A stretch of DNA of 64,000 nt from the NCBI RefSeq assembly GCF_963665245.2, contig NZ_CAXXEY010000003.1, positions 1,083,895-1,147,894 of the forward strand. The letters run 5' to 3'. The position numbers were made by a program, and so were the translations under genes. The notes below the pieces were generated by a model. That model made no database searches. It was not told the origin of the DNA and worked only from the letters and a program-made list of their open reading frames with translations. Positions 16,046-34,149 of the stretch are shown one piece after another. Numbering within the stretch: the stretch's first letter is position 1; each line of letters begins with the position of its first letter. The DNA comes from an uncultured Paludibaculum sp. (GTDB lineage Bacteria > Acidobacteriota > Terriglobia > Bryobacterales > Bryobacteraceae).

Positions 16046-19000
16046 TCAGAATGAATAACGCAAGCTCAGTTGAATGTTCCGCTCGCTCGACTTCGCGGTC
16101 ACTTTGCTGAACGTCGCACTGCGCGGATTCGTTGTCACCGCGCCCCAGTTGGGATGGTTCAGGAAGTTGAACGACTCGGCCCGCAGCAGCACCCGGTGCT
16201 TCTCGAAGATTGGGAACTCCTTCGAGAGCGACAGGTTCCAGTTCTGGAACCCCGGGTTGTAGATGTACTGGTTGCGCCCTTGCGTTGTCGAAAACGTGCC
16301 CGCCGCCGGAGCCGTAAACAACGCTCCGCTTCCGTCCGTCGCACGGAACCAGAAGTTGGAGTCGGCGGCACCTTGTGAAAACGCGCGCTCACCCCGCGAA
16401 AGCATTGGGTTCCCCCTTACCTCCCAGGGCTGAGAGTCGGAGCTCCCGATCCCCGCCAAGTCGTCGCTCGTTCCAATCGTCACAGGCGTGCCCGTCTGGA
16501 ACTGAATCGCGCTTGTTGCCATCCAGCCCCCCAATACACGCCCCGCCAGCCCCTTGTTGGTCTTCAGGAAGGGGATCTCGTAGATCACGTTCGTCACCGC
16601 CACATGGCGCGTGTCGAAGTCCGATGGGCCCCAGAAGTTCTTGTCGTCATATGCGTTGTACAGCCGTGCCCGGAAGTCCGAACCGTTATCCAGCGACTTC
16701 GAATACGTATACGCGAAGTTGAAGCTGAAGCCCTTTGCAAACCGCCGGTTCACGTCAAGCTGCATCCCCTGATACGCGCTCCGCGCCGCCGTCTCGCGGT
16801 ACGCGATATTCGTGTACCCCTTATACGGCCGCAGCACATTCACGTTCACAGCCTTGTTCGCCGCCACGGTCAAAGTCCCGACGGGAAGCTGATTCAGATC
16901 TCGCTCCCGCTCCATGTGCAATCCAACACGTCCCACATACGCCACCGAGACCGTGGTATCAAAGCCCACGTTCCGCTCATACGTCGCGTTCCAGTTGTAG
17001 GCGCTCGGAATCTTGAACTCCGGCTCGATGGTCATGAAGTAGAACGGAAACGCGTTGTTCGATCCGCCGCCTGGATTGTCCACCTGTCCGCTGGCAATCG
17101 ACGCCATCGGTTGGAACGGTGGGTTCCCACCCAGCAGGATATTGCCGCTCATGCTGGGCCGCGCAAAGAACCGGCCAAACCCGGCCCGCAGCACGTCCTT
17201 ACCCGAGATCGAGTACGCCAACCCCACTCTGGGTTGAAAGTTCATCGTCTGCAACTGGGGATACGCCTTGCTGCCGCCCGTGAACAACCGGTCATATGCG
17301 CCGGAATCCACGCCCGACACCCGGCCCTTCGCCTCCGACGGGAACCCGTTGCCTGGAATCACCACGCCGTTATACCGGTCGCCGCTCAGAATGAACCCCG
17401 TCTTTGGATCCTGCACCACCGCCTTCGATGGGTCATACTGCCGTGGATCGAAGATCGCGATGTTCCGCCACAGGCTGTACCAAAACGGCGTCATCAGCGT
17501 GTGCCTGATCCCGAACTCCACGCGCAGCTTGGACGACGCCTTCCACGAATCCTGCGCGAACCATTCGAACTGCTGCCCGCGGTAGGGCGTGTACGAGCGT
17601 GGTCCAATCTCCGCATACGTGTCGAACAAACCCAGCGCCGCGTTCGCCACCGCCAGGCCCGACGTCGCCGCTCCGGCTCGCGAATCGGTAAACACAAACC
17701 GGCCATTCTGGTTGTTCGTCCCGCCCGGCACACCCTGCACGTTGATCTGGTCGAAGTCGTTCTGCCCCGAATACTCGTACGAGACGCCTGCCTTCAGCGT
17801 GTGACTCCCCATGATCTTCGTCAGGCTGTCCGCCAGCACATAAATCGGCCCCGCCGACTTCGACGGATAGGGGCTGCCGTCCACCGTGGCGAAGTTCGCG
17901 ATCCCGATTGTCGGTACCTTGTCGGCGATCTCCTTCTGCTCGGGATAGATATACGGATAGTTGATGCCATACTGCCCGCGCGCGTACTTGCCGTTGTCCC
18001 GGTTCACGTCGATCCGCACCCGGTCCACACTCACCGATGCCTGCAGCTCATTAATCGTCGTCGGGCTCAACGTCCATGTCCAGTTCGTCGTCCACGTCTC
18101 GTTCGGCCGATCCCATCGTGGCGCGGCAATATCAAATCCCGTGTTGAACGCCTGATCCTGCTGGAACTGATAGTTGAGGTGGCGGAATCGCACCGCATGC
18201 CGTTCGCTCGGATTGAAGTCCACCGAGATCGTGTCCTTCCGCTGATCCGTCGGCTGCGGAGCCGTCGTGTAGTAGTTCGAAGCCCCCTGCAGGAACCCCG
18301 CCACCGGAGCCGGATACGCCTTCAGGAGCCCCAGCCCGTTGGCACTCACCCGCGACGCCGGAATCAGGTTGCCCGCGAAGGGTTGCCCCGTCAGCGGGTC
18401 ATTGATCGTCCGCACCTTCCCAAAGAAGGAGTTGCTCGCCGATAGCAGTTCCGAGAAGTCGCCCTGCCGCATCGCCAGAGACGGCACAATCTGCGCGCTT
18501 GTCTGCTCCTGGCGGTATCGCACATACTCCTGCGCCCACAGGAAGAACAGCTTGTTTTTCTCCTGATTCCACTTGCCCGGCACGTACACGGGACCACTCA
18601 CCACATATCCGAACTGGTTGAACTTGTTCGCCTGCCGCACATCGCCTGTCCGGTTGCGCGCCCACGTATTCGCATCCAGTTTTTCGTTCCGGAAGTACTC
18701 ATACAGACTCCCGTGAAAGTCGCGTCCTCCGCTCTTCGTCACAATCCTCACCTGCCCGCCCGACGCCCGGCCATACTCGGCGTTGTAGTTCGCCGTCAGC
18801 ACCTGGATTTCCTGCACGGTCTCCACGTCCACCGTCCCGACACTCGTGTTGTTCCCACGCGTCCGCACCGCCGGAGCCCCGTCATAGGTGATCATGTTAT
18901 CCGTCGTTCGCGATCCGTTGATCGCAAACCCGCCGTTCGTCAGATCGAAGCTGAACGCCTGCAATGAGCCACCCCGCACACCCGGTTTCAGCAGAGCCAG

Positions 19001-24794: not shown

Positions 24795-25208
24795 CTAGAC
24801 GGCTTTGGCGAAACCTTCGACGCGCTCCCTGATCTGATCGCGGATTCGTCGGAACGCGGCTCTCCTCACTTCTTCCGGTCCGTCCACAGCGGCCGGATCT
24901 TCAAAGCTCCAGTGAATGCGCTCCACCTTACCTGGCAGAATGGGGCAGCTCTCTTTCGCGTTGTCACAGACAGTGAAAACGTAACGGAATTCGTGGCTCA
25001 GAAATTCATCGACCGACTTCGATCGATGATTGGATATATCGATGCCCAGTTCCGCCATGACGGCGATGGCTTCGGGCCGGACCAGGCTTGGTCTCGTCCC
25101 GGCGCTGTGAACGTCAAAGCGGTCTCCAAGATAGTGGCGGAAAAGGCCCTCTCCCATCTGGCTGCGGGCCGAGTTGCCGGTGCAAAGCACGAGAATGCTG
25201 GGCTTCAT
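24795..25208 (-). CDS. arsC: Arsenate reductase, thioredoxin-coupled (LMW-PTP fold)
   Basis: CTGNSARSQM P-loop; TVCDNAKESCP redox Cys pair; HWSFEDPA. Confidence 0.9.
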   Translation of the reverse strand: MKPSILVLCTGNSARSQMGEGLFRHYLGDRFDVHSAGTRPSLVRPEAIAVMAELGIDISNHRSKSVDEFLSHEFRYVFTVCDNAKESCPILPGKVERIHWSFEDPAAVDGPEEVRRAAFRRIRDQIRERVEGFAKAV

Positions 25209-25211
25209 GGC

Positions 25212-25706
25212 TTAGGGCTTCTTGATTTCCTTCTCGTAGTACTCCCGGAATCGCTTGTTGATGTCGTCCCGGACCGCGCGGAACACTGTCAGCTTCTCGG
25301 CATCCGTCCCGCTTGCCTTTGCGGGATCCGGGAATCCGATGTGTGTGCGCACTCCGACCTTGCCACGGAAGGCAGGGCAGGACTTGTCCGCGTCGTCGCA
25401 TACCGTAATCACGTAGTCGAAGGACAGGTTGATGAATTGGCTGACACTCTTTGGAGTCCCGCCAGAGATGTCGATACCCACTTCGCGCATTGCCTGGATC
25501 GCAAAAGGATTGACCCGAGCAGCGGGCTTTGTGCCCGCGGAGAATACCTGCAGTCGGGGATCAAACGACTCCAGGAAGCCTGCTGCCATTTGGCTCCTGG
25601 CCGAATTGCCAGTGCACAGCACAAGAACACGAGCTTTGCCCGCGTCCGCCGCGGGCATCGTAGCTGCGAGCAGACACACCAATACCATCAGTTGCGCGAT
25701 GCGCAT
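25212..25706 (-). CDS. arsC: ArsC/LMW-PTP paralogue with N-terminal signal peptide
   Basis: MRIAQLMVLVCLLAATMPAADA leader, then CTGNSARSQM and TVCDDADKSCP. Confidence 0.85.
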   Translation of the reverse strand: MRIAQLMVLVCLLAATMPAADAGKARVLVLCTGNSARSQMAAGFLESFDPRLQVFSAGTKPAARVNPFAIQAMREVGIDISGGTPKSVSQFINLSFDYVITVCDDADKSCPAFRGKVGVRTHIGFPDPAKASGTDAEKLTVFRAVRDDINKRFREYYEKEIKKP

Positions 25707-26632: not shown

Positions 26633-27670
26633 ATGATTCCGCAAGAGAAGTGCGAGGCAGTGACCCGCGGTCTGCGCGAGGCTTTCGGAGTATCAAAGTT
26701 CGAGGACATCTCGAAGCTCACCGGGGGGCATACCTCGTCCCTCGTCTTTCGCATCGTCGTGGGCGGCTCGCCATACGTGTTGAAGATCATCACGCGTACA
26801 GAGGATCCTACGCGCCACTACACCAGCATGAAGGCGGCGGCGGAAGCCGGTGTGGCGCCGCGTGTCTGGTACACCAGCATCGAGGACAGGATTTCGATCA
26901 CGGATTTTGTCGAGGCCAAACCTCTTGCGATATCGGAGGCGCTGATCAAGTTGCCAGCTCTGCTGCGGACGCTGCATGCGCTGCCGCCCTTCGGTCGGGC
27001 TCCTTTCAACACCACATGTACGTTCCTGCTCAACAAAGGACCGGCCTTGGACGGGTTCCTCCAGAAGTTTCGAACTGACAATATCCTGCCCAAAGCCGAA
27101 AGCGAGGAGTTCTTCGCCCGGTATACGGAAGTGGCCGCAGTTTACCCGTATGACGACGGGGAGATGGTGTCGAGCCACAACGACGTATTCAAACCGGACA
27201 ACGTGCTTTTCGATGGACAACGCGTGTGGCTGGTGGACTGGGAAGCTGCGTTCCTGAACGACCGGTATGCCGACCTGGCAGTGCTTGCGAATCACGTAGT
27301 CACGAATGACGACGAGGAGACGGTCTACCTTCAGGAATACTTTGGCGCGACGCCCGATCGTTACCAGCGAGCCCGATTCCATCTGATGCAGCAGCTCGCC
27401 CATTTGTTCTACTCCATGGTCTTCCTCTCTCTGGGTTCGGCGGGCCAGCCGGTCGATTGGAGTAGAGCCGTGCCCGGCTTCGACGACTATCATCGGCGCA
27501 TGTGGGCTAGGGAAGTTGACCTGGCGGACAACGATGTGCGGCTTACCTACGGCCGGGTTCACTGGGAGCGGGTTGTACAAAACGTGCGGCAGGCACGATA
27601 CAAAGAAGCCCTCAGAATTGTTTCTCAGCCGGAACCAACAGCGAAGGTCATCGCGCTCCGGTCTCTGTGA
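26633..27670 (+). CDS. Aminoglycoside phosphotransferase/choline kinase-family protein
   Basis: HNDVFKPDN Brenner motif, VDWE; GGAGG RBS before ATG 26633. Confidence 0.85.
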   Translation: MIPQEKCEAVTRGLREAFGVSKFEDISKLTGGHTSSLVFRIVVGGSPYVLKIITRTEDPTRHYTSMKAAAEAGVAPRVWYTSIEDRISITDFVEAKPLAISEALIKLPALLRTLHALPPFGRAPFNTTCTFLLNKGPALDGFLQKFRTDNILPKAESEEFFARYTEVAAVYPYDDGEMVSSHNDVFKPDNVLFDGQRVWLVDWEAAFLNDRYADLAVLANHVVTNDDEETVYLQEYFGATPDRYQRARFHLMQQLAHLFYSMVFLSLGSAGQPVDWSRAVPGFDDYHRRMWAREVDLADNDVRLTYGRVHWERVVQNVRQARYKEALRIVSQPEPTAKVIALRSL

Positions 27671-27676
27671 ATTGTG

Positions 27677-27720
27677 CATAAGGACTCGCTTATGTAATGC
27701 TACATAAGCAATCTCTTATG
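27677..27720 (+). promoter_or_regulatory. Twin palindromic operator CATAAG-N6-CTTATG
   Basis: Exact copies at 27677-27694 and 27703-27720; the second ends in the ATG of the ArsR-family gene. Confidence 0.8.
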
Positions 27721-28086
27721 CATCATTCGCCCAATACAGTCTTCAAGGCGGTTGCCCATCCCGCGCGCCGGAGAATCATCGACCTGCTGTCGCATTCGCC
27801 GTGTACGGTCAAGGAGCTGACGGCGTCTTTCACGATGTCTCAGCCAGCCGTCTCCCAGCATCTTCGCGAATTGCGCGACGCCGGGCTCGTTGCCTCCGAG
27901 ACGTTCGGTCCTGAACACCGCTATCGGCTGATCGCAAATCCCCTGCAGCAGGTGTTCGAGTGGACGGCGCAGTACAAACACTTCTTCGATCCCTCCGGCC
28001 ACGCATGGTCGTTTACGCCGGCTGCACCGGACCCCAAGCAGCCCATCGGCGGCAAAAGGAAAGGTGGTCCGCGCAATGGCAGTTGA
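27718..28086 (+). CDS. ArsR/SmtB-family transcriptional regulator (no Cys metal site evident)
   Basis: FKAVAHPARRRIIDLL, MSQPAVSQHLRELRDAGLV; alternative start 27697. Confidence 0.9.
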   Translation: MHHSPNTVFKAVAHPARRRIIDLLSHSPCTVKELTASFTMSQPAVSQHLRELRDAGLVASETFGPEHRYRLIANPLQQVFEWTAQYKHFFDPSGHAWSFTPAAPDPKQPIGGKRKGGPRNGS

Positions 28087-28579
28087 AGGTTCGACGCCTG
28101 ATCCCGGAGTGATCGTGCCTCATCTGGTAGTGCGCGACATGCCGGAGGCGCTTGATTTCTATACCAGCGCGTTCTCGGCCCGCGTTCTCTATCGCTCCGT
28201 CTCGCCGAGTGGTCAAGGGGAGCACGTCCACCTGCAAGTCTGGTCGTCGCTCATCCAACTCTCCACGGAGGAGCCTGACTACGAGCATCGCCGGATGGCC
28301 GGTGCGTTCCTGGCCTCGCCGGAGACCCTTCGAGGGACAAGTTGCGTCTTCCAGGTCGCTGTTCCGGACGTTGACGCAGCCTATCAACGGGCAGTCGATC
28401 ACGGAGCACTTCCAGCCATGCCGCCGGTGGATATGTTTTGGGGTGATCGCTATGGCTGGGTGCGCCATCCCTTTGGCCACATGTGGGCGCTTTGTACCAT
28501 TCAGGAAGTGCTGACGCCCGATGAAGTTGCCGCTAGGATGCGCGCATTCTCTTCTCAGATGAAAGGACATGAGGAATGA
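28076..28579 (+). CDS. VOC/glyoxalase (PhnB-like) protein
   Basis: PHLVVRDMPEALDFY, MFWGDRYG..PFGHMW. Confidence 0.88.
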   Translation: MAVEGSTPDPGVIVPHLVVRDMPEALDFYTSAFSARVLYRSVSPSGQGEHVHLQVWSSLIQLSTEEPDYEHRRMAGAFLASPETLRGTSCVFQVAVPDVDAAYQRAVDHGALPAMPPVDMFWGDRYGWVRHPFGHMWALCTIQEVLTPDEVAARMRAFSSQMKGHEE

Positions 28580-29103
28580 TCAAGGAACTGATTTCGGCCG
28601 TGATGATCTGTGGTGCGCTCTGCGCGCAGCAGCGGCCTGCCCAAAGCTCATCGGCCGATTCATGGCAGGCGTTGCGGTTCCTCGTAGGTACGTGGGAGTC
28701 GAAGACGCACGGCGGATCGGCCAACGCCGAGAGCTCCGGAACCTACACCTTTCAATTGGAGTTGCGAGACCACGTCCTTGCCCGGCACGCCGCGCCGGTT
28801 GCCTGTAAAGGCCCTGCCGGGTTCGATTGCCAGCATGGGGATCTGCTTTACATCTACCAGGACGCTCCGGGGCAGCCGCGGAAGGCGATCTACTTCGACA
28901 ATGAAGGGCACGTGATTCACTACACCGTCACCACCCCTGAGCCGAACATGGCTGTCCTCCTTTCCGATCCAGCACAACCCGGCCCCCAGTTCCGGCTCAC
29001 CTACGGGCTGAAGGGCGGCGTGATGGAGGGAAAGTTCCAGATACGCGTGCCGGGGCAGGACGACTTCCGACCCTATTTGGAATGGGGCGGAGCGAAGAAA
29101 TGA
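28576..29103 (+). CDS. Secreted beta-barrel-like hypothetical protein
   Basis: Signal peptide; LRFLVGTW, AIYFDNEGHVIHY; ATGA overlap with the VOC gene. Confidence 0.75.
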   Translation: MIKELISAVMICGALCAQQRPAQSSSADSWQALRFLVGTWESKTHGGSANAESSGTYTFQLELRDHVLARHAAPVACKGPAGFDCQHGDLLYIYQDAPGQPRKAIYFDNEGHVIHYTVTTPEPNMAVLLSDPAQPGPQFRLTYGLKGGVMEGKFQIRVPGQDDFRPYLEWGGAKK

Positions 29104-29259
29104 TGTTCTGAGTGGAGGTCGCAAAGGGGCTGGCACGGCTGACTGGCCGCGGCGCGGGTCAGTGCCACCGACACGTAGTCGAAAGCTGCTCTGCGTCCGA
29201 GGTGAAACGCCGTCCGCCGCCGCGTCAGGTCGACAACAGCATTCAGGCCTCATCAGAAA

Positions 29260-29997
29260 TCAGCGGTCCGCAACAAACTCCGCCGCGACAACTGCCGGAT
29301 GCTTCGTGCGGGCGTTCCGAAGCGTCCGCATGATCGTGGCGTTGCGAAATCCCGCGGCGCGGAATTCGTCAAGGAATGCACCTGCATCCTTCGCGCCGGC
29401 AATTCACGAGAACCAGTTATCGTTGCCGGACCTTAGGTGCTCAGGCAAGGGGGCACTCAGCACCAGTTCCGCACCCGAAACATGGCCTCCTGGACGAACC
29501 ACGCGGCCCAGCTCACGGAATATCTCTTCTCGAAATGGGTTGAGGTTGAAAATGCCATTGACCAGGGCGACATCGACCGACGAATCGGGGAATGGCAGTT
29601 GCTCGGCGGAGGCGCGCACAAACGACACCTGCGAAAGCCCGAGCCGCCTGGCGGAACGTCGTGCCCGGTCGAGCATGCCCTCACTAAAATCGATTCCGAC
29701 CACGCGACCTCTTCGCCTCACTCGCTGCGCTGCGATGAGGCTGTCCAGACCGGCACCGCAACCCAAATCGATCACGTCCAGTCCGTCACGGAGGGGCGCC
29801 TGCAGAGAAACGCTCGACACACCGGCGAAGGCAGCGACGGCTTCATCCGGAAGTGCGCGCAACAGATCATCCGGGTATCCAAGGTCGCGAGCAAAGACGG
29901 CACCTACGGGAAACGGATGTCTCCCGTCAGGGGCGTCGGCCGCGGCCGAGTAGGCCCTGCGCACTGACTCCCGCAACTCGTGTGAGCTCGTCGTCAC
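29260..29997 (-). CDS. ArsM-like SAM methyltransferase, probable selenoprotein (UGA at 29404-29406 read as Sec)
   Basis: DLGCGAGLD, GIDFSEGM; ...DNWFS-TGA-IAGAKDAGAFLDEFRAAGFRNATIMRTLRNARTKHPAVVAAEFVADR*; UGA aligns with the ArsM C-terminal Cys of xCxGGA; probable GTG start 29997. Confidence 0.85.
29371..29406 (-). other. Bacterial SECIS-like hairpin
   Basis: mRNA: UGA-12 nt-AAGGA UGC [AGGU] GCA (U) UCCUU; 8-bp stem with one bulged U and a G-containing apical loop. Confidence 0.75.
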
Positions 29998-30034
29998 GTT
30001 CTGCCCGCCACTTCGACCGTATTTGAAGCGGACG

Positions 30035-30709
30035 TCATCTCGGCGCCTCGCCCACGGCCACAGGCAATCCATTGGCCCGCCAGTCGGGGACTCCATCTTC
30101 CAGCCGGACAGCCCGAAAACCCTGAGAGCGCAGTAGTCTTACAGCCTCGACCGCCAGGACGCAGTAGGGGCCCCGGCAATAGGCGACGACTTCCCGGTCA
30201 CGCGGGAGCATCGTGAGCTGCGTTTCGAGTTCCTTGAGTGGAATGGACAGGGCACCGGGAATATGGCCCGCCCGATACTCTTCTCTCGGGCGAACGTCCA
30301 GCACGATCACTTCGGCCCGGCGTACGCGGTTCAGCAGTGCCTCTTTGTCGACCGGTTCCATCGACCCGCGATCGGTGTTGAACTGCCGGACAATCGCGTC
30401 GATTTCCGCGAGGCGGCTCTCGGCGAGCGTGCGCAGTCCCCGGTAGAAATCGCAGACCTGCTCGTCGGCGAGGCGATAGGTCACAAACACGCCTTCCTTC
30501 ACCGTCTCGACCAATCGAGCCGAATGTAGGACTCGAAGATGCTGAGAGGCATTGGCGACGCTCAATCCGGCTTCGCGCGCAAGCGCCTCAACTGTTCGCG
30601 GCCCCTGGCACAAGAGGTCCAGCAGTTCCAGTCTGGGCGGACTACCAACCGCCCTGCCGATGCGGGCGAGTTGCTCATAGACGGCTTTTTTTAGCGACGT
30701 TCCAGCCAT
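30035..30709 (-). CDS. ArsR/SmtB regulator fused to a rhodanese domain
   Basis: SPPRLELLDLL..SVANASQHL HTH; DVRPREEYRAGHIPGA and YCRGPYC rhodanese loop. Confidence 0.93.
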   Translation of the reverse strand: MAGTSLKKAVYEQLARIGRAVGSPPRLELLDLLCQGPRTVEALAREAGLSVANASQHLRVLHSARLVETVKEGVFVTYRLADEQVCDFYRGLRTLAESRLAEIDAIVRQFNTDRGSMEPVDKEALLNRVRRAEVIVLDVRPREEYRAGHIPGALSIPLKELETQLTMLPRDREVVAYCRGPYCVLAVEAVRLLRSQGFRAVRLEDGVPDWRANGLPVAVGEAPR

Positions 30710-30746
30710 GCAACGCTCAGGATACTCTGAGTGTAGGTCACTATCA

Positions 30747-30770
30747 TCAAATAATCAATTGAGTGATTGA
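30747..30770. promoter_or_regulatory. Overlapping TCAA-N8-TTGA palindromes in the divergent promoter
   Basis: TCAA(30747)-N8-TTGA and TCAA(30755)-N8-TTGA within an AT-rich 96-bp spacer. Confidence 0.55.
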
Positions 30771-30805
30771 ATATAATACTTTGCATCTGCTATACCGGAG
30801 ACTTC

Positions 30806-31633
30806 ATGAGCCAACCTCCCATCCCATTGCTCGACCACCTGCTTGGGCAGCCCTCGGCTTTCACGCCCGAAGACCTGATCGCCGCGGTTCGAGCGGAGCG
30901 TGCCCTGCCAGACAAGCCGGTTCCACCGGTCTGTGTTCTCGATTTCGACGGCGATCTGACCGACTGGCTCGTGTCCGTGCGGGCGGTGCTGCCTTGCGCT
31001 GACTGGGGGTGCTTTCACACGAAGATGTACGTGCTCGATGTCGATGGCATGTCCTGCGGCATCATTCCCCGCACCATCGGGGGCCCATACGCCGTCCTGG
31101 TCGCCGAGCAACTGGCCTCCTCCGGCGCGCGAGTTGCTTTGGGATTAACGTCTGCCGGTCGGGTCAGCCGCTCGCTCCCGGTGCCCAGTTTGGTGATTGC
31201 GACTCAGGCCATACGTGATGAAGGCACGTCCTACCACTACTTGGCACCGCAGGACGAGGCCCTGTGCCGGCCGGACGTCACCGACGCCCTTCTGAGCGAA
31301 TTGAGCTCACTCGACCTGCCAGTGTCATCCGGTCTGGTGTGGACCACCGATGCGCCGTATCGGGAGACGCTGCAGCAACTGGAGCAGCACAGCGATGCTG
31401 GAGCTTTGGCCGTGGAGATGCAGGCCGCCTCGCTATTCGCCTTCGGCGCGGCGCGTCAATTCCCTGTCGGGGTGGTGGCACACGTCACGAACGCCGTCGG
31501 CCACACGGAAGAGCAGTTTGACAAGGGTGAGGCTCAACTGAGCTTCGAGATTCTTAAGTCCATTTGCCGGGCTGGCCGCCGTATGTTGACGGGCTTGGAA
31601 CGCGGCCGGAACATCGATTCACACACGGCGTGA
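30806..31633 (+). CDS. Nucleoside phosphorylase (PNP/UDP family)
   Basis: IGGPYAVLVAE, AIRDEGTSYHY, WTTDAPYRET, AVEMQAA; GGAG RBS. Confidence 0.88.
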   Translation: MSQPPIPLLDHLLGQPSAFTPEDLIAAVRAERALPDKPVPPVCVLDFDGDLTDWLVSVRAVLPCADWGCFHTKMYVLDVDGMSCGIIPRTIGGPYAVLVAEQLASSGARVALGLTSAGRVSRSLPVPSLVIATQAIRDEGTSYHYLAPQDEALCRPDVTDALLSELSSLDLPVSSGLVWTTDAPYRETLQQLEQHSDAGALAVEMQAASLFAFGAARQFPVGVVAHVTNAVGHTEEQFDKGEAQLSFEILKSICRAGRRMLTGLERGRNIDSHTA

Positions 31634-31754
31634 CGCCCCCTCCGGCGCCCCGAAGCCCCTCAGCCCTTTGCGGCAGCGCCTTCGTGTCTCGGTCGACGAG
31701 TTCACAACAGACCGGCCGCTTGCTCCCCCATCTCCGGCCAGGTCCACGTGGAAG

Positions 31755-32006
31755 CTACCGTGACTTTGCGACTCTCGCAAAATTCCGCTCAAAGAGCTCA
31801 CGCGCCCGCTGCACGCCCTCCGGACTCAAAACCACCGATTTCGCTTTGCTCTTCGGGTCCGAAATGTACCCTTTGGTGTGCAGTCGGTCTAGGGCATCCC
31901 AGTCGTGCGACTTCCACGTGCGGGCGCCCCATTCATTCTCTTCGCAAATGGTCAGGCACAACAACGCCAGCACCATCTCATCGACTTTGTCTTGATCGTA
32001 GTCCAT
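31755..32006 (-). CDS. Small DUF6429-like protein
   Basis: DKVDEMVLALL, WKSHDWDALDRLH.KGYISDPKSKAKSV. Confidence 0.8.
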   Translation of the reverse strand: MDYDQDKVDEMVLALLCLTICEENEWGARTWKSHDWDALDRLHTKGYISDPKSKAKSVVLSPEGVQRARELFERNFARVAKSR

Positions 32007-32290
32007 GCGTCACTCGCCTTCAGGCGCGATAATAACAAACCGGCGGGATGCCTTTGCCACGAACGCCGCTGTGATCCCACCGACCGGTTTGGTCCAAGGA
32101 AGTACCGTGTAACCCGCCGGGCTCTCAGCACGGAGGAAGTCGCCCCAGCCCGGCACGCTCTCGGTCTGGCCACCAACTATGAATCCCAGCCCCCTCAGCC
32201 AGTAAGGCGACCGCTCCGCCCCCACATGGATCGAGCGAAAGGTAGTGCACCGCGAAACTGATACACCGCATGGCCCGTGTCGGGTCATGA

Positions 32291-32710
32291 CTAGACAAGC
32301 AGGGCGGCCACTGCCGCCTCGGCCACGGCGATGTCCTGCTCAACAGTCCCTGCGCTGGCGCCCACGGCCCCAATAATTGCCCCATCGGAAAGGATGGGAA
32401 CGCCGCCGCCGAAGATGACCACCTTACCGGCATTGCTTTCCTGAATGCCATAGAGAGGTTGCCCCGGCTGGGCAAGCCCGGCCAGAACAGTAGTCGTCTT
32501 GTCGAAGATTCTCGCGGTCACCGCCTTGTTGATGGCGAGCTCGATGCTCCCGATGAGTGCACCGTCCTGGCGCAGGAACGCCACCAGGTGCCCGCCGGCA
32601 TCAACCACCGCGATATTGTAGGCGATCCCCAGGCTCGTGGCCTTTGCTTCCGCGGCAGACAGCATTCGCTTTGCATCGTCGAGCGTGACGGTGGTGTATA
32701 TCCGTGGCAT
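32291..32710 (-). CDS. GlcG/HbpS-family heme-binding protein
   Basis: IAVVDAGGHL, LAINKA.TA, FGGGVP, IGAVGASAG. Confidence 0.9.
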   Translation of the reverse strand: MPRIYTTVTLDDAKRMLSAAEAKATSLGIAYNIAVVDAGGHLVAFLRQDGALIGSIELAINKAVTARIFDKTTTVLAGLAQPGQPLYGIQESNAGKVVIFGGGVPILSDGAIIGAVGASAGTVEQDIAVAEAAVAALLV

Positions 32711-32772
32711 GCCATCCTCGATCCTTTGGACGCCCTGCTGCACCTCCAGGAAGATGCAGCCAAGGGAAGCCG

Positions 32773-34149
32773 TTAGTTTTTGAACACAATCATCTTTTCA
32801 GCGGTCATCTCCCGCATGGTGTACGGAATGCCGCCAATCCCATAACCGGATTCGCGCCTTCCGCGGAATGGCATCCAATCCGTTCGAAACGCGGTATGGT
32901 CGTTCACCAGCACGGTCGACGCATCGAGGCGCTCAGCCGCGTAGAAAGCCGTGCGCAGGTCTTCCGTGAAGATGCTCGATTGAAAAGCGACCGGCAGGGA
33001 ATTGGCAGCGGCTAGCGCCTCGTCGAGGTGCTGAAACGCGTACACACAGGTGATCGGCCCAAATGCCTCCAGAGTCGAAACCTTCGCATTCCGCGGCGGA
33101 TGGACGAGAATGCCCGGCATCAGGGTGGTCTCACTGTGCCGCCCTCCGCCCATGAGGCGAGCGCCTCCGGCGACGGCTTCGTCAGTCCAGGCGGCCACCC
33201 TGGTTACCTCGCTGGGATGGATGAGAGGGCCAACTTCGGTTTCCGGCAAGAGTGGATCGCCTACCTTCAGGGCCGAGACGCGCGCCGAGAAGCGCTTCAG
33301 GAACTCTTCTTCCAAGGCCTCGTGGACATAGATGCGCTGAACGGAAACGCAAACCTGACCCGCGTGATAATACCCGCCCTTGACCAGCGGTTCGATGACA
33401 CGGTCCAGATCGGCTTTGCGATCGACGATCACTGGCGCCACTCCGCCGTGCTCCAGCGCACAGCGAGCGCCGGGAGCCAGCTTGGAACGGAGCGACCAAC
33501 CAACCTTTGCCGAACCGATGAAGCTGAGGAAGGCGATGCGCGGATCGGTCACCAGTGCCTCACTCAAACCGCGCTTCTCCGGCAGGAACGTCTGCACCCA
33601 GCCTTCCGGCAGGCCCGCCTCAGTGAGCAGGCCAACAAGTTCGAAGCAGCACAGCGGGGTTGCCGTGGCTGGCTTGACGATCACCGGGCATCCCACCGCA
33701 ACCGCGGGGGCCACCTGGTGAACTATCAGGTTGAGCGGATGATTGAACGCGGAAACTGCGGCAACTACGCCGATCGGCTCATGAATCGTGAAGGCCCGCC
33801 GGCCGGCACTCGCGCGCGTCATCCCCATCGGGATCTCCGCGCCCGCCGACACCCGCAGCATGTCCGCTGCATTGCGAATGCCGTCAATGGCGCGATCCGT
33901 CTCGACCAACGCATCCGTGAGCGGCTTGCCCCCCTCCCGCGCGATCAGGTGTCCAAACGTCTCTCGCCGGCTCTCGACGAGATCGCCCAGTCTGTTCAGG
34001 ATCTCGATCTTCTCGTACTTCTCCAGCCAGTGAGTCCGGTCAGCCAGAAGCCGCGCCGCCGTTGTCAGTTTGCGCTCCAGTGCCGCCTCGTCGTCGCCGG
34101 GCAAACTGGTTATGGGCTGCCGGTCAAATGCTTGAACGACTTCAATCAT
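32773..34149 (-). CDS. Aldehyde dehydrogenase family
   Basis: AFNHPLN, FIGSAKVG, LEHGG, AGQVCVS, EAFGP; start re-set to ATG 34149. Confidence 0.93.
   Translation of the reverse strand: MIEVVQAFDRQPITSLPGDDEAALERKLTTAARLLADRTHWLEKYEKIEILNRLGDLVESRRETFGHLIAREGGKPLTDALVETDRAIDGIRNAADMLRVSAGAEIPMGMTRASAGRRAFTIHEPIGVVAAVSAFNHPLNLIVHQVAPAVAVGCPVIVKPATATPLCCFELVGLLTEAGLPEGWVQTFLPEKRGLSEALVTDPRIAFLSFIGSAKVGWSLRSKLAPGARCALEHGGVAPVIVDRKADLDRVIEPLVKGGYYHAGQVCVSVQRIYVHEALEEEFLKRFSARVSALKVGDPLLPETEVGPLIHPSEVTRVAAWTDEAVAGGARLMGGGRHSETTLMPGILVHPPRNAKVSTLEAFGPITCVYAFQHLDEALAAANSLPVAFQSSIFTEDLRTAFYAAERLDASTVLVNDHTAFRTDWMPFRGRRESGYGIGGIPYTMREMTAEKMIVFKN

Follow-up and report, generated by a model that had tools for sequence, protein, structure and literature searches.

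A recurrent module of an ArsR-rhodanese repressor, a selenocysteine methyltransferase and a phosphorylase-like enzyme in an uncultured Paludibaculum sp., with a possible role in the response to sulfane sulfur or selenium

The persulfide regulons governed by BigR/Blh, SqrR and CstR (cst) consist of SQR, PDO(-rhodanese), DsrE and transporter genes. In Escherichia coli, a sulfide-responsive ArsR-type protein and a rhodanese, not fused to each other, are encoded in the YgaV-YgaP operon (PMC9774250). ChrB, a chromate-responsive DNA-binding regulator, carries a rhodanese-like domain at its C-terminus, and rhodanese modules in ArsR-type regulators have been noted as well (PMC3817168). Selenocysteine (Sec)-containing "arsenite methyltransferases" with the UxxG motif are a catalogued family of prokaryotic selenoproteins (PMC13188914). 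Thus, the ArsR plus rhodanese combination, the Sec-containing ArsM-like enzymes and the nucleoside phosphorylase I (NP-I) fold are already known. Here we describe a locus at which the three occur side by side, positions 29,260 to 31,633 of a 64,000-nt stretch of the genome of an uncultured Paludibaculum sp. (assembly GCF_963665245.2, contig NZ_CAXXEY010000003.1, forward strand, 1,083,895-1,147,894); the whole of this stretch is called the window below.

The genes of the ArsR-rhodanese regulator, the Sec methyltransferase and the phosphorylase-like enzyme form a real and recurrent module, of which the window carries a minimal form. We favour its interpretation as a self-regulated response to chalcogens (sulfane sulfur and/or selenium), that is, persulfide- or selenium-responsive methylation and not an arsenic system, and assign to this reading a probability of about 0.5. 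The features on which the analysis is based are as follows.

29260..29997, minus strand: Sec methyltransferase, ArsM-like, dependent on S-adenosylmethionine (SAM); 245 aa, GTG start at 29997, Sec198, TGA stop at 29260-29262
29404..29406, minus strand: in-frame UGA predicted to be read as Sec, in the motif WFS-U-IAGA
29374..29389, minus strand: hairpin GGAUGC-AGGU-GCAUUC resembling a Sec insertion sequence (SECIS), beginning 14 nt past the UGA
30035..30709, minus strand: ArsR/SmtB winged-helix repressor with a C-terminal rhodanese domain; 224 aa, loop C178-RGPY-C183
30710..30805, no strand assigned: divergent AT-rich promoter/operator region; 96 bp, 38.5% GC
30753..30772, no strand assigned: predicted ArsR-rhodanese operator AATCAATTGAGTGATTGAAT, one mismatch to ATTCAA-N8-TTGAAT
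30747..30770, no strand assigned: two overlapping TCAA-N8-TTGA palindromes (30747-30762 and 30755-30770)
30772..30777, plus strand: candidate -10 box, perfect TATAAT, putatively serving the phosphorylase-like gene
30806..31633, plus strand: phosphorylase-like enzyme of the NP-I (PNP/UDP) fold; 275 aa, PF01048 88.4 bits

The initial annotation had described an ArsR-rhodanese fusion with a CRGPYC loop 37 bp upstream of the Sec methyltransferase and a PNP/UDP-family gene diverging from it over a 96-bp AT-rich spacer. All these elements were found where it had placed them: the gap between the TGA stop of the regulator and the GTG at 29997 is exactly 37 nt, and the spacer has 38.5% GC vs. 62.4% across the window. 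The ATG start of the phosphorylase-like gene is backed by alignment to 17 homologues and is preceded by GGAG at a distance of 6-9 nt. Since the flanking genes on both sides are convergent (a 175-aa open reading frame (ORF) ending at 29103 and a DUF6429 gene at 31755-32006), the local unit comprises the methyltransferase and regulator genes, the spacer and the phosphorylase-like gene. Over 27500-33500, no difference was seen among the contigs of four DNA runs made from a single sample, which makes it clear that the in-frame TGA is not a one-off read error.

Conservation of the module was analysed from three anchors, the phosphorylase-like gene (80 species genomes), the regulator (80 loci from metagenomes, often short ones) and the Sec methyltransferase (10 contexts), with neighbours labelled by hidden Markov models (HMMs) built from Pfam-checked clusters; loci and proteins are cited below by L and P numbers. 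In 13-14 of the 80 genomes, a full-length ArsR-rhodanese gene (49-70% identity of the product) is found at a distance of up to about 5 kb from the phosphorylase-like gene (about 7 kb in L073), the arrangement being divergent, co-directional or interleaved with NifS, DsrE or fatty acid (FA) hydroxylase genes. SAM methyltransferases, belonging to three subfamilies (19, 18 and 2 loci), occur no farther than 5 kb from the phosphorylase-like gene in 34 of these genomes and, according to the gene maps, are its immediate neighbours in about 23 of the 80, as compared to about 3% expected by our own estimate. One cultured species in which a member of the phosphorylase-like family has a methyltransferase partner is Granulicella aggregans M8UP14 (L013). 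Other recurrent neighbours are DsrE (15 genomes), FA-hydroxylase-family (9), NifS (8) and metallo-beta-lactamase (MBL)-rhodanese (5) genes. The full trio is present in L026, L027, L048, L067, L077, L080, L085, L112, L134, L161, L164/165 and L167, and its order varies: NifS, methyltransferase, DsrE, regulator and a divergent phosphorylase-like gene in L027 and L048; a phosphorylase-like gene divergent from the regulator, NifS and methyltransferase genes in L161; three genes that share one direction, their stop and start codons overlapping, in L164. In L166, the phosphorylase-like and methyltransferase genes overlap. Among the 10 contexts of the Sec methyltransferase, the phosphorylase-like gene adjoins it in 6 and the regulator in 4.

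Could the phosphorylase-like gene be a housekeeping gene of nucleoside salvage, not coupled to the others and placed beside them by chance in one lineage? The majority of the genomes (46 of 80) have no methyltransferase within 5 kb of it and about 84% have no ArsR-rhodanese gene there; moreover, most of the trio loci come from Acidobacteriota, and shared ancestry within this phylum inflates the linkage counts. However, the linkage survives rearrangement and is also seen in Planctomycetota and in a Brocadiaceae-labelled genome, the frequency of immediate methyltransferase neighbours (about 23 of 80) is well above our estimate of 3%, overlapping and fused genes occur, and the active site is unlike that of salvage purine nucleoside phosphorylase (PNP) and uridine phosphorylase (UP). 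Chance neighbourhood is therefore quite doubtful in our opinion. We consider the module real because the gene order varies, other phyla are included and the chance of a single-copy gene falling within 5 kb of another one is, by our own estimate, about 0.2%. Hence the conservation of the neighbourhood, named in the initial annotation as the first check of its proposal, holds across varied gene orders and phyla.

The regulator belongs to the ArsR/SmtB family by its helix-turn-helix (HTH) half (Pfam HTH_5, PF01022, 46.8 bits vs. 22, residues 24-68; NCBIfam HTH_metalloreg, NF033788, 68.5 bits vs. the cut-off of 55) and contains a rhodanese domain (PF00581, 59 bits, residues 123-212), the activity of which is predicted from the sequence. 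In nine orthologues, C178 and C183 of the rhodanese loop are the only invariant cysteines; the surrounding AYCRGPYC is invariant too and, when used as a pattern, retrieved at least 551 relatives. The HTH domain has no CXC arsenite motif, its only cysteines (C34 and C86) are variable, and no conserved metal-ligand set was found in this half among the same orthologues. In the loop C-R-G-P-Y-C-V, the residue after X5 is Val and not Arg, so that the CX5R signature of the Cdc25/Acr2 type is absent. The closest solved relative of the HTH half is a mycobacterial ArsR-family fragment (2kko/3gw2, 91 bits), which may be the HTH half of the mycobacterial ArsR-rhodanese Rv0324/Mb0332. In the literature on Rv0324 and rhodanese we found no description of the latter, nor did the searches return one in which ArsR-rhodanese proteins figure as a family of sensors that have a defined operator.

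As in the ygaVP system, an ArsR-family autorepressor is coupled here to a rhodanese, and YgaV (3cuo) and YgaP (5hbl) are among the solved relatives of the fusion. YgaV, a repressor of the SqrR/BigR type, responds to sulfide-derived species; for the window's regulator, a sulfane-sulfur or selenium signal is predicted. Unlike YgaV and YgaP, the two parts are fused into one polypeptide, the invariant cysteines belong to the rhodanese loop and not to the HTH domain, and the outputs are a Sec methyltransferase and an enzyme of the NP-I fold. The resemblance to the BigR, SqrR and CstR regulons lies in the neighbours of the ArsR-rhodanese genes in other genomes (SQR-like, MBL/PDO(-rhodanese), DsrE and transporter genes); the differences are the absence of these genes from the window and the fusion of the rhodanese to the repressor. 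BigR, SqrR and YgaV have in the HTH domain a conserved cysteine pair that becomes cross-linked on exposure to persulfide; C34 and C86 of the window's protein, which might correspond to this pair, are not conserved in the family and are missing in several orthologues (BigR model NF040642, 32.3 vs. 155). ChrB represents another DNA-binding family with an MST-like loop and a chromate signal, and it has no CRGPYC loop.

The regulator appears to have an operator of its own. The sequence ATTCAA-N8-TTGAAT (with two mismatches at most) occurs in the 150 nt upstream of 63 out of 85 genes for ArsR-rhodanese proteins, taken from both genomes and metagenomes, vs. 54 out of 1700 random windows of the same loci, and in these 63 regions it mostly lies 10-25 nt ahead of the start codon. 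The copy at 30753-30772 is the sole match in the window at this stringency; it is located 44 nt before the ATG of the regulator and 33 nt before that of the phosphorylase-like gene, and its 3' end shares base 30772 with the TATAAT hexamer. A scan for consensus promoters and terminators revealed no full -35/-10 promoter in the spacer. The two overlapping TCAA-N8-TTGA palindromes pointed out in the initial annotation are indeed there: this pattern is observed 3 times in the window vs. 0.55 expected, a number reached in 2 out of 100 shuffles. No conserved counterpart of the first one (30747-30762) turned up in the tests made; the second (30755-30770) is the core of the operator conserved upstream of orthologous regulators elsewhere, which makes it more than a chance occurrence. 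We thus predict that the palindrome represents one copy of a family-wide operator, bound by the regulator, in a promoter region shared by the two transcription units; its position and conservation suggest that both promoters would be repressed. Divergent genes separated by a spacer that contains an operator recur in L015, L027, L048, L084 and L161; L017 is divergent too, yet no operator was scored there.

Several observations concern similar sites at other places. The third TCAA-N8-TTGA match of the window (TCAAATCCCGTGTTGA, 18132-18147) is situated within a long ORF and cannot be matched to the operator in its extended form. In L004 (1874-1893), L072 (1689-1708) and L074 (8076-8095), sites that resemble the operator (0-1 mismatch) adjoin phosphorylase-like genes, and no ArsR-rhodanese gene was found on these contigs; such sites hint at occasional control in trans. 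They do not add up to a general trans-regulon, operators in front of phosphorylase-like genes without a linked regulator having been seen in one or two cases only (L004, L072).

The nature of the signal is suggested by the genes that surround the regulator. In the 80 metagenome loci these are MFS (20), MBL/PDO-like (19), DsrE (18), SQR-like (12) and ArsM-like methyltransferase (12) genes and, less frequently, NifS (8), phosphorylase-like (6) and FA hydroxylase (6) genes. Furthermore, NifS, DsrE and a ThiS/ThiF-rhodanese set accompany the pair of the phosphorylase-like enzyme and the methyltransferase elsewhere. At the locus of P0207, a pair of phosphorylase-like and Sec-methyltransferase genes directly follows a set of PALP, JAB, ThiS and ThiF-rhodanese genes, which corresponds to the gene content of sulfur-carrier-protein cysteine biosynthesis. 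Methylation as a way of disposing of reactive sulfur species has a recent precedent, such species being reported to be detoxified in this manner (PMC13089183).

Another kind of neighbourhood points to metals. RND efflux (CzcCBA-like), P-type ATPase or Csp copper-storage genes border L161, L164, L166 and L167, and one might propose that the regulator senses a metal or metalloid (Cu, Cd, Te or chromate-like oxyanions) and that the methyltransferase detoxifies tellurite or selenite as a part of a metal-resistance island. The match of one of the partner methyltransferase subfamilies to TehB and the example of ChrB, a chromate sensor with a rhodanese-like domain (PMC3817168), agree with this proposal. 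The absence of a conserved metal-ligand set from the HTH half does not, nor does the fact that the genes most often found with the regulator are of the SQR-like, MBL/PDO-like and DsrE types, and we regard sensing of metals as rather improbable. As far as the window itself is concerned, it has none of the modelled sulfide/persulfide partner families.

The methyltransferase has the class I SAM-binding fold (Pfam Methyltransf_31, 99 bits; Methyltransf_25 and Methyltransf_11 were also matched). Its top NCBIfam models are ArsM-type selenoproteins, none of which reaches the cut-off (191 vs. 510 and 181.7 vs. 460), and the ArsM model PRK11873 is not reached either (163.5 vs. 263). Three features expected of a bacterial selenoprotein, namely a UGA aligned with Cys, conservation downstream of it and a SECIS stem-loop, were found computationally. 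A Cys homologue (P0122, 245 aa) shows 72% identity at 99% query coverage, and in all the loci fetched, the codon aligned with the window's TGA is TGA in 13 homologous genes and TGC (Cys) in 4. Protein similarity extends beyond the Sec codon, e.g., in L045 (57% identity across 243 aa). RNAalifold applied to eight Sec-type homologues gave a stem of 6 bp capped by a G-rich loop of 4 nt, with all 6 pairs kept in 8 out of 8; one of the pairs is compensatory in three sequences (UA to AU twice and to GC once), partly via a synonymous Ala codon. In a second clade, another perfect hairpin is found equally far past the UGA. The hairpin matched no Rfam family. Since the fold of the single sequence downstream of the UGA is unexceptional (z = -0.91), it is the comparison between homologues that speaks for the SECIS element. 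Judging by this comparison, the methyltransferase is a true Sec/Cys protein. Most of the close database homologues (P0123-P0240) are annotated as proteins of 196-197 aa, which cover 78-80% of the query and end at the Sec codon; from this it follows that Sec prevails in the clade and that its misannotation is widespread. Several of the shortened homologues are labelled "arsenite methyltransferase", even though two of the three cysteines that bind arsenite are missing in the clade.

Alignment to CmArsM (about 64 bits; 4fr0/4kw7) indicates what the enzyme shares with ArsM and with the Sec "arsenite methyltransferase" family: the fold, the reactive position Cys224/Sec198 and the motif U-I-A-G. Unlike ArsM, it is below the ArsM and selenoprotein model cut-offs and retains only one of the three As(III) ligands, Cys72 being replaced by Val, Cys174 by Gly, and Cys224 being preserved as the TGA codon of Sec198. 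As(III) is therefore probably not its substrate. A lone reactive Sec/Cys would fit better a covalently held chalcogen substrate than tri-coordinate As(III). The loss of the arsenite ligands in the Sec clade has, according to our literature searches, not been described.

The third protein belongs to the NP-I fold (PNP_UDP_1, PF01048). Its AlphaFold2 model (pLDDT 87.7) has as the best Foldseek matches hexameric PNP, UP and methylthioadenosine phosphorylase (MTAP) with TM scores of 0.63-0.82 and 19-26% identity, the probability being 1.00 for 1odi, 1lx7 and 1jds; the structural neighbours are the PNP of Thermus thermophilus, the uridine phosphorylases of E. coli, Salmonella and Vibrio, and the MTAP of Sulfolobus solfataricus. 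None of the NCBIfam equivalogs is reached (uridine phosphorylase 53.8 vs. 280, AMP nucleosidase 47 vs. 264), and the scores of the nucleosidase models are negligible (MtnN, NF004079, 17.1 vs. 169; HpnG 16.7 vs. 187). The family is a tight one: at least 6181 homologues pass E 1e-5 (8000 scored), the best listed being 61-88% identical, 278 representatives of the 50% clustering pass 1e-30, and the members come from Acidobacteriota, Planctomycetota, Nitrososphaeria and Bathyarchaeota. An exact-protein look-up returned no record for the window's own sequence, and PADLOC gave no match of this enzyme to a defence system.

With the hexameric NP-I phosphorylases (1odi, E. coli UP, 1jds) the enzyme has in common the fold, the S/T of the phosphate loop (S116) and the E-M of the ribose motif. 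The active site is otherwise remodelled. In the well-aligned part, Arg87 of E. coli PNP corresponds to G113, Glu181 (of the E-M-E ribose motif) to Q206 and Asp204 to N229, all three replacements being invariant in 200 family members. The place of the GDPxR24 strand-loop-helix of PNP is occupied by the acidic DFDGDLTDW (46-54), and the stretch opposite Arg43 (60-72) reads W67-x-C69-F70-H71, with no basic residue in the family consensus; this mapping of Arg24 and Arg43 was made from secondary-structure position and a low-confidence alignment to the E. coli sequences. Further differences from the NP-I phosphorylases are 40 extra N-terminal residues and the invariant D48, D50, D53, W67, C69, H71, R89 and R119. 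The search for the phosphate-binding arginines and the complete E-M-E motif was, consequently, negative. Replacement of the canonical residues means that the canonical phosphate/arsenate site is, as far as can be judged from the alignment, absent, and that formation of ribose-1-arsenate is unlikely. An Asn at the position of Asp204 occurs in 6-oxopurine-specific PNPs, and adenine-cleaving PNP, MTAP and methylthioadenosine/S-adenosylhomocysteine (MTA/SAH) nucleosidase (MTAN) use Asp. The T. thermophilus PNP likewise has Asn at this position and the S. solfataricus MTAP has Asp; with N229 at the place of the catalytic Asp, the window's enzyme does not qualify as an MTA/SAH nucleosidase (MtnN) either. 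We found no description of this remodelled phosphorylase-like family in the literature.

These data bear directly on the arsenic interpretation. The initial annotation had proposed a co-regulated S/Se/As module, in which the phosphorylase would either activate arsenate for the methyltransferase or clear the SAH by-product. In its full form, the former option implies arsenolysis of a nucleoside to ribose-1-arsenate, its reduction by thiols to arsenite, methylation of the latter and sensing of arsenite by the regulator. Canonical PNPs do accept arsenate, the named families nearest to the methyltransferase are of the ArsM type and its homologues are labelled accordingly, and two ArsC-like genes are present about 4 kb away. 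Nevertheless, this scenario is highly improbable. The three arginines that bind phosphate or arsenate have no equivalent in the phosphorylase-like enzyme (G113 at Arg87; no basic residue in the family consensus of segments 46-54 and 60-72); the methyltransferase has lost Cys72 and Cys174 and is below the ArsM cut-off; the regulator has no CXC motif, and its invariant cysteines are confined to the rhodanese loop. No Acr3/ArsB-type gene was detected among the ORFs screened near the trio, both ArsC-like genes are under the NCBIfam cut-offs, and the partners of the regulator elsewhere are sulfide and persulfide genes. The activation of arsenate by the phosphorylase is thus unlikely, and of the proposed S/Se/As module the S/Se part is supported by the recurrent trio, the conserved operator and the S/Se neighbours, and the arsenic part is not supported. 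The ArsC-like genes are of the low-molecular-weight protein tyrosine phosphatase (LMW-PTP) type and lie in tandem at 24795-25706 on the minus strand. Against the NCBIfam arsenate-reductase cut-off of 174.3 they score 139.5 and 111.5, and the N-terminus encoded by the second resembles a signal peptide.

Some indication of what the phosphorylase-like enzyme does comes from its partners. Three unrelated-looking subfamilies of class I methyltransferases, each with one conserved Cys or Sec, partner the gene, often being adjacent and on the same strand, and three methyltransferase::phosphorylase-like fusions (P0246, P0257 and P0259) display both domain orders. Radical-SAM genes of the Rv1681 family neighbour it in 6 of the 80 genomes. 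A second conserved cluster (L023, L034, L041, L051, L062, L065 and L070) combines it with a GT2 glycosyltransferase, a TIGR04282/DUF2064 protein (142.7 bits vs. 134), an Rv1681-family radical-SAM enzyme and a secreted 245-aa protein with no Pfam matches, and one TIGR04282::phosphorylase-like fusion (P0243) is known. An arsenosugar pathway was considered for this cluster and dropped despite the TIGR04282 neighbour and fusion, the radical-SAM neighbour being of the Rv1681 family and not ArsS.

MtnN/Pfs, HpnG and MqnB are nucleosidases of the PNP_UDP_1 family that serve SAM enzymes, HpnG and MqnB acting after radical-SAM adenosylation. The phosphorylase-like enzyme resembles them in having SAM methyltransferase and radical-SAM partners and differs from MtnN and HpnG in the negligible sequence scores and in Asn in place of the catalytic Asp. 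The simplest common thread would be cleavage of a nucleoside derived from SAM, be it a by-product (for example SAH) or an intermediate formed by adenosylation, a role that we propose tentatively, its likelihood being somewhat short of even. The pattern of SAM partners favours clearance of SAH over the arsenate option. For the SAH option of the initial annotation there are arguments on both sides: the methyltransferase and radical-SAM partners and the rare fusions speak for it, and the invariant Asn at the position of the catalytic Asp speaks against it.

The same Asn leads to a different proposal, in which the enzyme makes the methyl acceptor for its partner, that is, a thio-, seleno- or 6-oxo-type base (methylated as by thiopurine methyltransferase, TPMT) or, from an S/Se nucleophile, 1-thio- or 1-seleno-ribose. 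As a general rule, an Asn here suits lactam and thiolactam bases more than adenine. The phosphate pocket is replaced by the invariant D48, D50, D53, C69 and H71; the partners include sulfur-relay proteins (NifS, DsrE and rhodanese) and the ThiS/ThiF-rhodanese set; each subfamily of the partner methyltransferases has one conserved Cys/Sec, and one fusion partner shows a weak TPMT match. However, the active-site location of C69 and H71 comes from alignment and secondary structure only, and the radical-SAM and TIGR04282 partners are explained less simply than by a role in the turnover of SAM-derived nucleosides, so that we consider synthesis of a methyl acceptor unlikely. A special version of it would be very unlikely: persulfide or perselenide delivered by a protein (NifS, DsrE or rhodanese) to the Asp/Cys/His pocket would cleave a nucleoside to 1-thio- or 1-seleno-ribose, which the Cys/Sec methyltransferase would then methylate. 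If this version were true, it would amount to a bacterial detoxification via selenosugars or thiosugars, switched by a repressor whose rhodanese receives persulfide or perselenide.

Returning to the chalcogen response as the preferred reading, we suppose that the module could operate as follows. A dimer of the ArsR-rhodanese would bind to the ATTCAA-N8-TTGAAT sequence observed at 30753-30772 and shut down both its own operon (regulator and Sec methyltransferase) and the divergent phosphorylase-like gene. Sulfane sulfur or selenium would be taken up by the rhodanese loop C178-RGPY-C183, which could then form a bridge of the di- or trisulfide type, and the repressor would be released from DNA. 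Sec198 of the methyltransferase could hold the chalcogenide as a Se-S or Se-Se adduct to be methylated with SAM. In the last and least certain step, the NP-I-fold enzyme may act on a nucleoside that arises from SAM as a by-product or an intermediate and cut it at the N-ribosidic bond without recourse to the canonical phosphate site.

A number of facts weigh against this reading. No DsrE, NifS, MBL, SQR or MFS member was detected by the HMM search of the window, so the sulfur interpretation relies on relatives: the gene content of the persulfide regulons is seen around the regulator in a part of the 80 loci and not in the window, which lacks SQR, PDO, DsrE and NifS. The regulator is located near the phosphorylase-like gene in only about 16% of the genomes, and the metal-resistance (RND/P-type ATPase) neighbourhoods of several trio loci leave room for a metal or metalloid signal. 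In the co-directional L164/165, the operator is placed downstream of the phosphorylase-like gene and ahead of the regulator, and control of the phosphorylase-like gene would thus depend on the arrangement. With respect to the enzyme, the invariant N229 at the place of the Asp of adenine-cleaving relatives counts against SAH, MTA and 5'-deoxyadenosine as substrates and, together with the altered ribose motif, against plain adenine nucleosides. The methyltransferase fusion proteins are singletons at 90% identity and may be assembly or frameshift artefacts, P0246 being present on three contigs. Finally, the tRNA scan found no tRNA gene in the window to go with Sec insertion (the Rfam scan gave no matches there either), and the runs that contain the sequence are DNA assemblies only, all from one sample.

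Taken together, the module could represent a stress-responsive ArsR-type repressor with its detoxification genes, in which the chemistry of the NP-I-fold enzyme may be new. No pathway with this trio was known to the authors of the initial annotation, and our literature searches likewise found no description of the three-gene module. If the reading is true, the regulator exemplifies a large class (at least 551 relatives) of one-component S/Se sensors that use a sulfurtransferase domain as the receptor instead of a cysteine pair of the HTH domain. A widespread clade of "arsenite methyltransferases" would then consist mostly of selenoproteins devoid of the arsenite ligands, which bears on soil surveys that count arsM genes to estimate the potential for arsenic methylation. 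The reading would also single out a conserved NP-I-fold family of at least 6181 homologues (at E 1e-5), which has SAM enzymes as partners and probably does not perform phosphorolysis.

Two more features of the locus may be mentioned. At 27697-28579 on the plus strand, the gene of a second, short regulator of the ArsR/SdpR-like kind (129 aa) runs into the beginning of an ORF of 171 aa, which has no NCBIfam match; the next ORF, of 175 aa, has neither Pfam nor NCBIfam matches. In the spacer, a second inverted repeat, CTCAG-GATACT-CTGAG, occupies positions 30716-30731, 6-21 nt before the start codon of the regulator, and could be either a hairpin of the 5' untranslated region or another protein-binding site.

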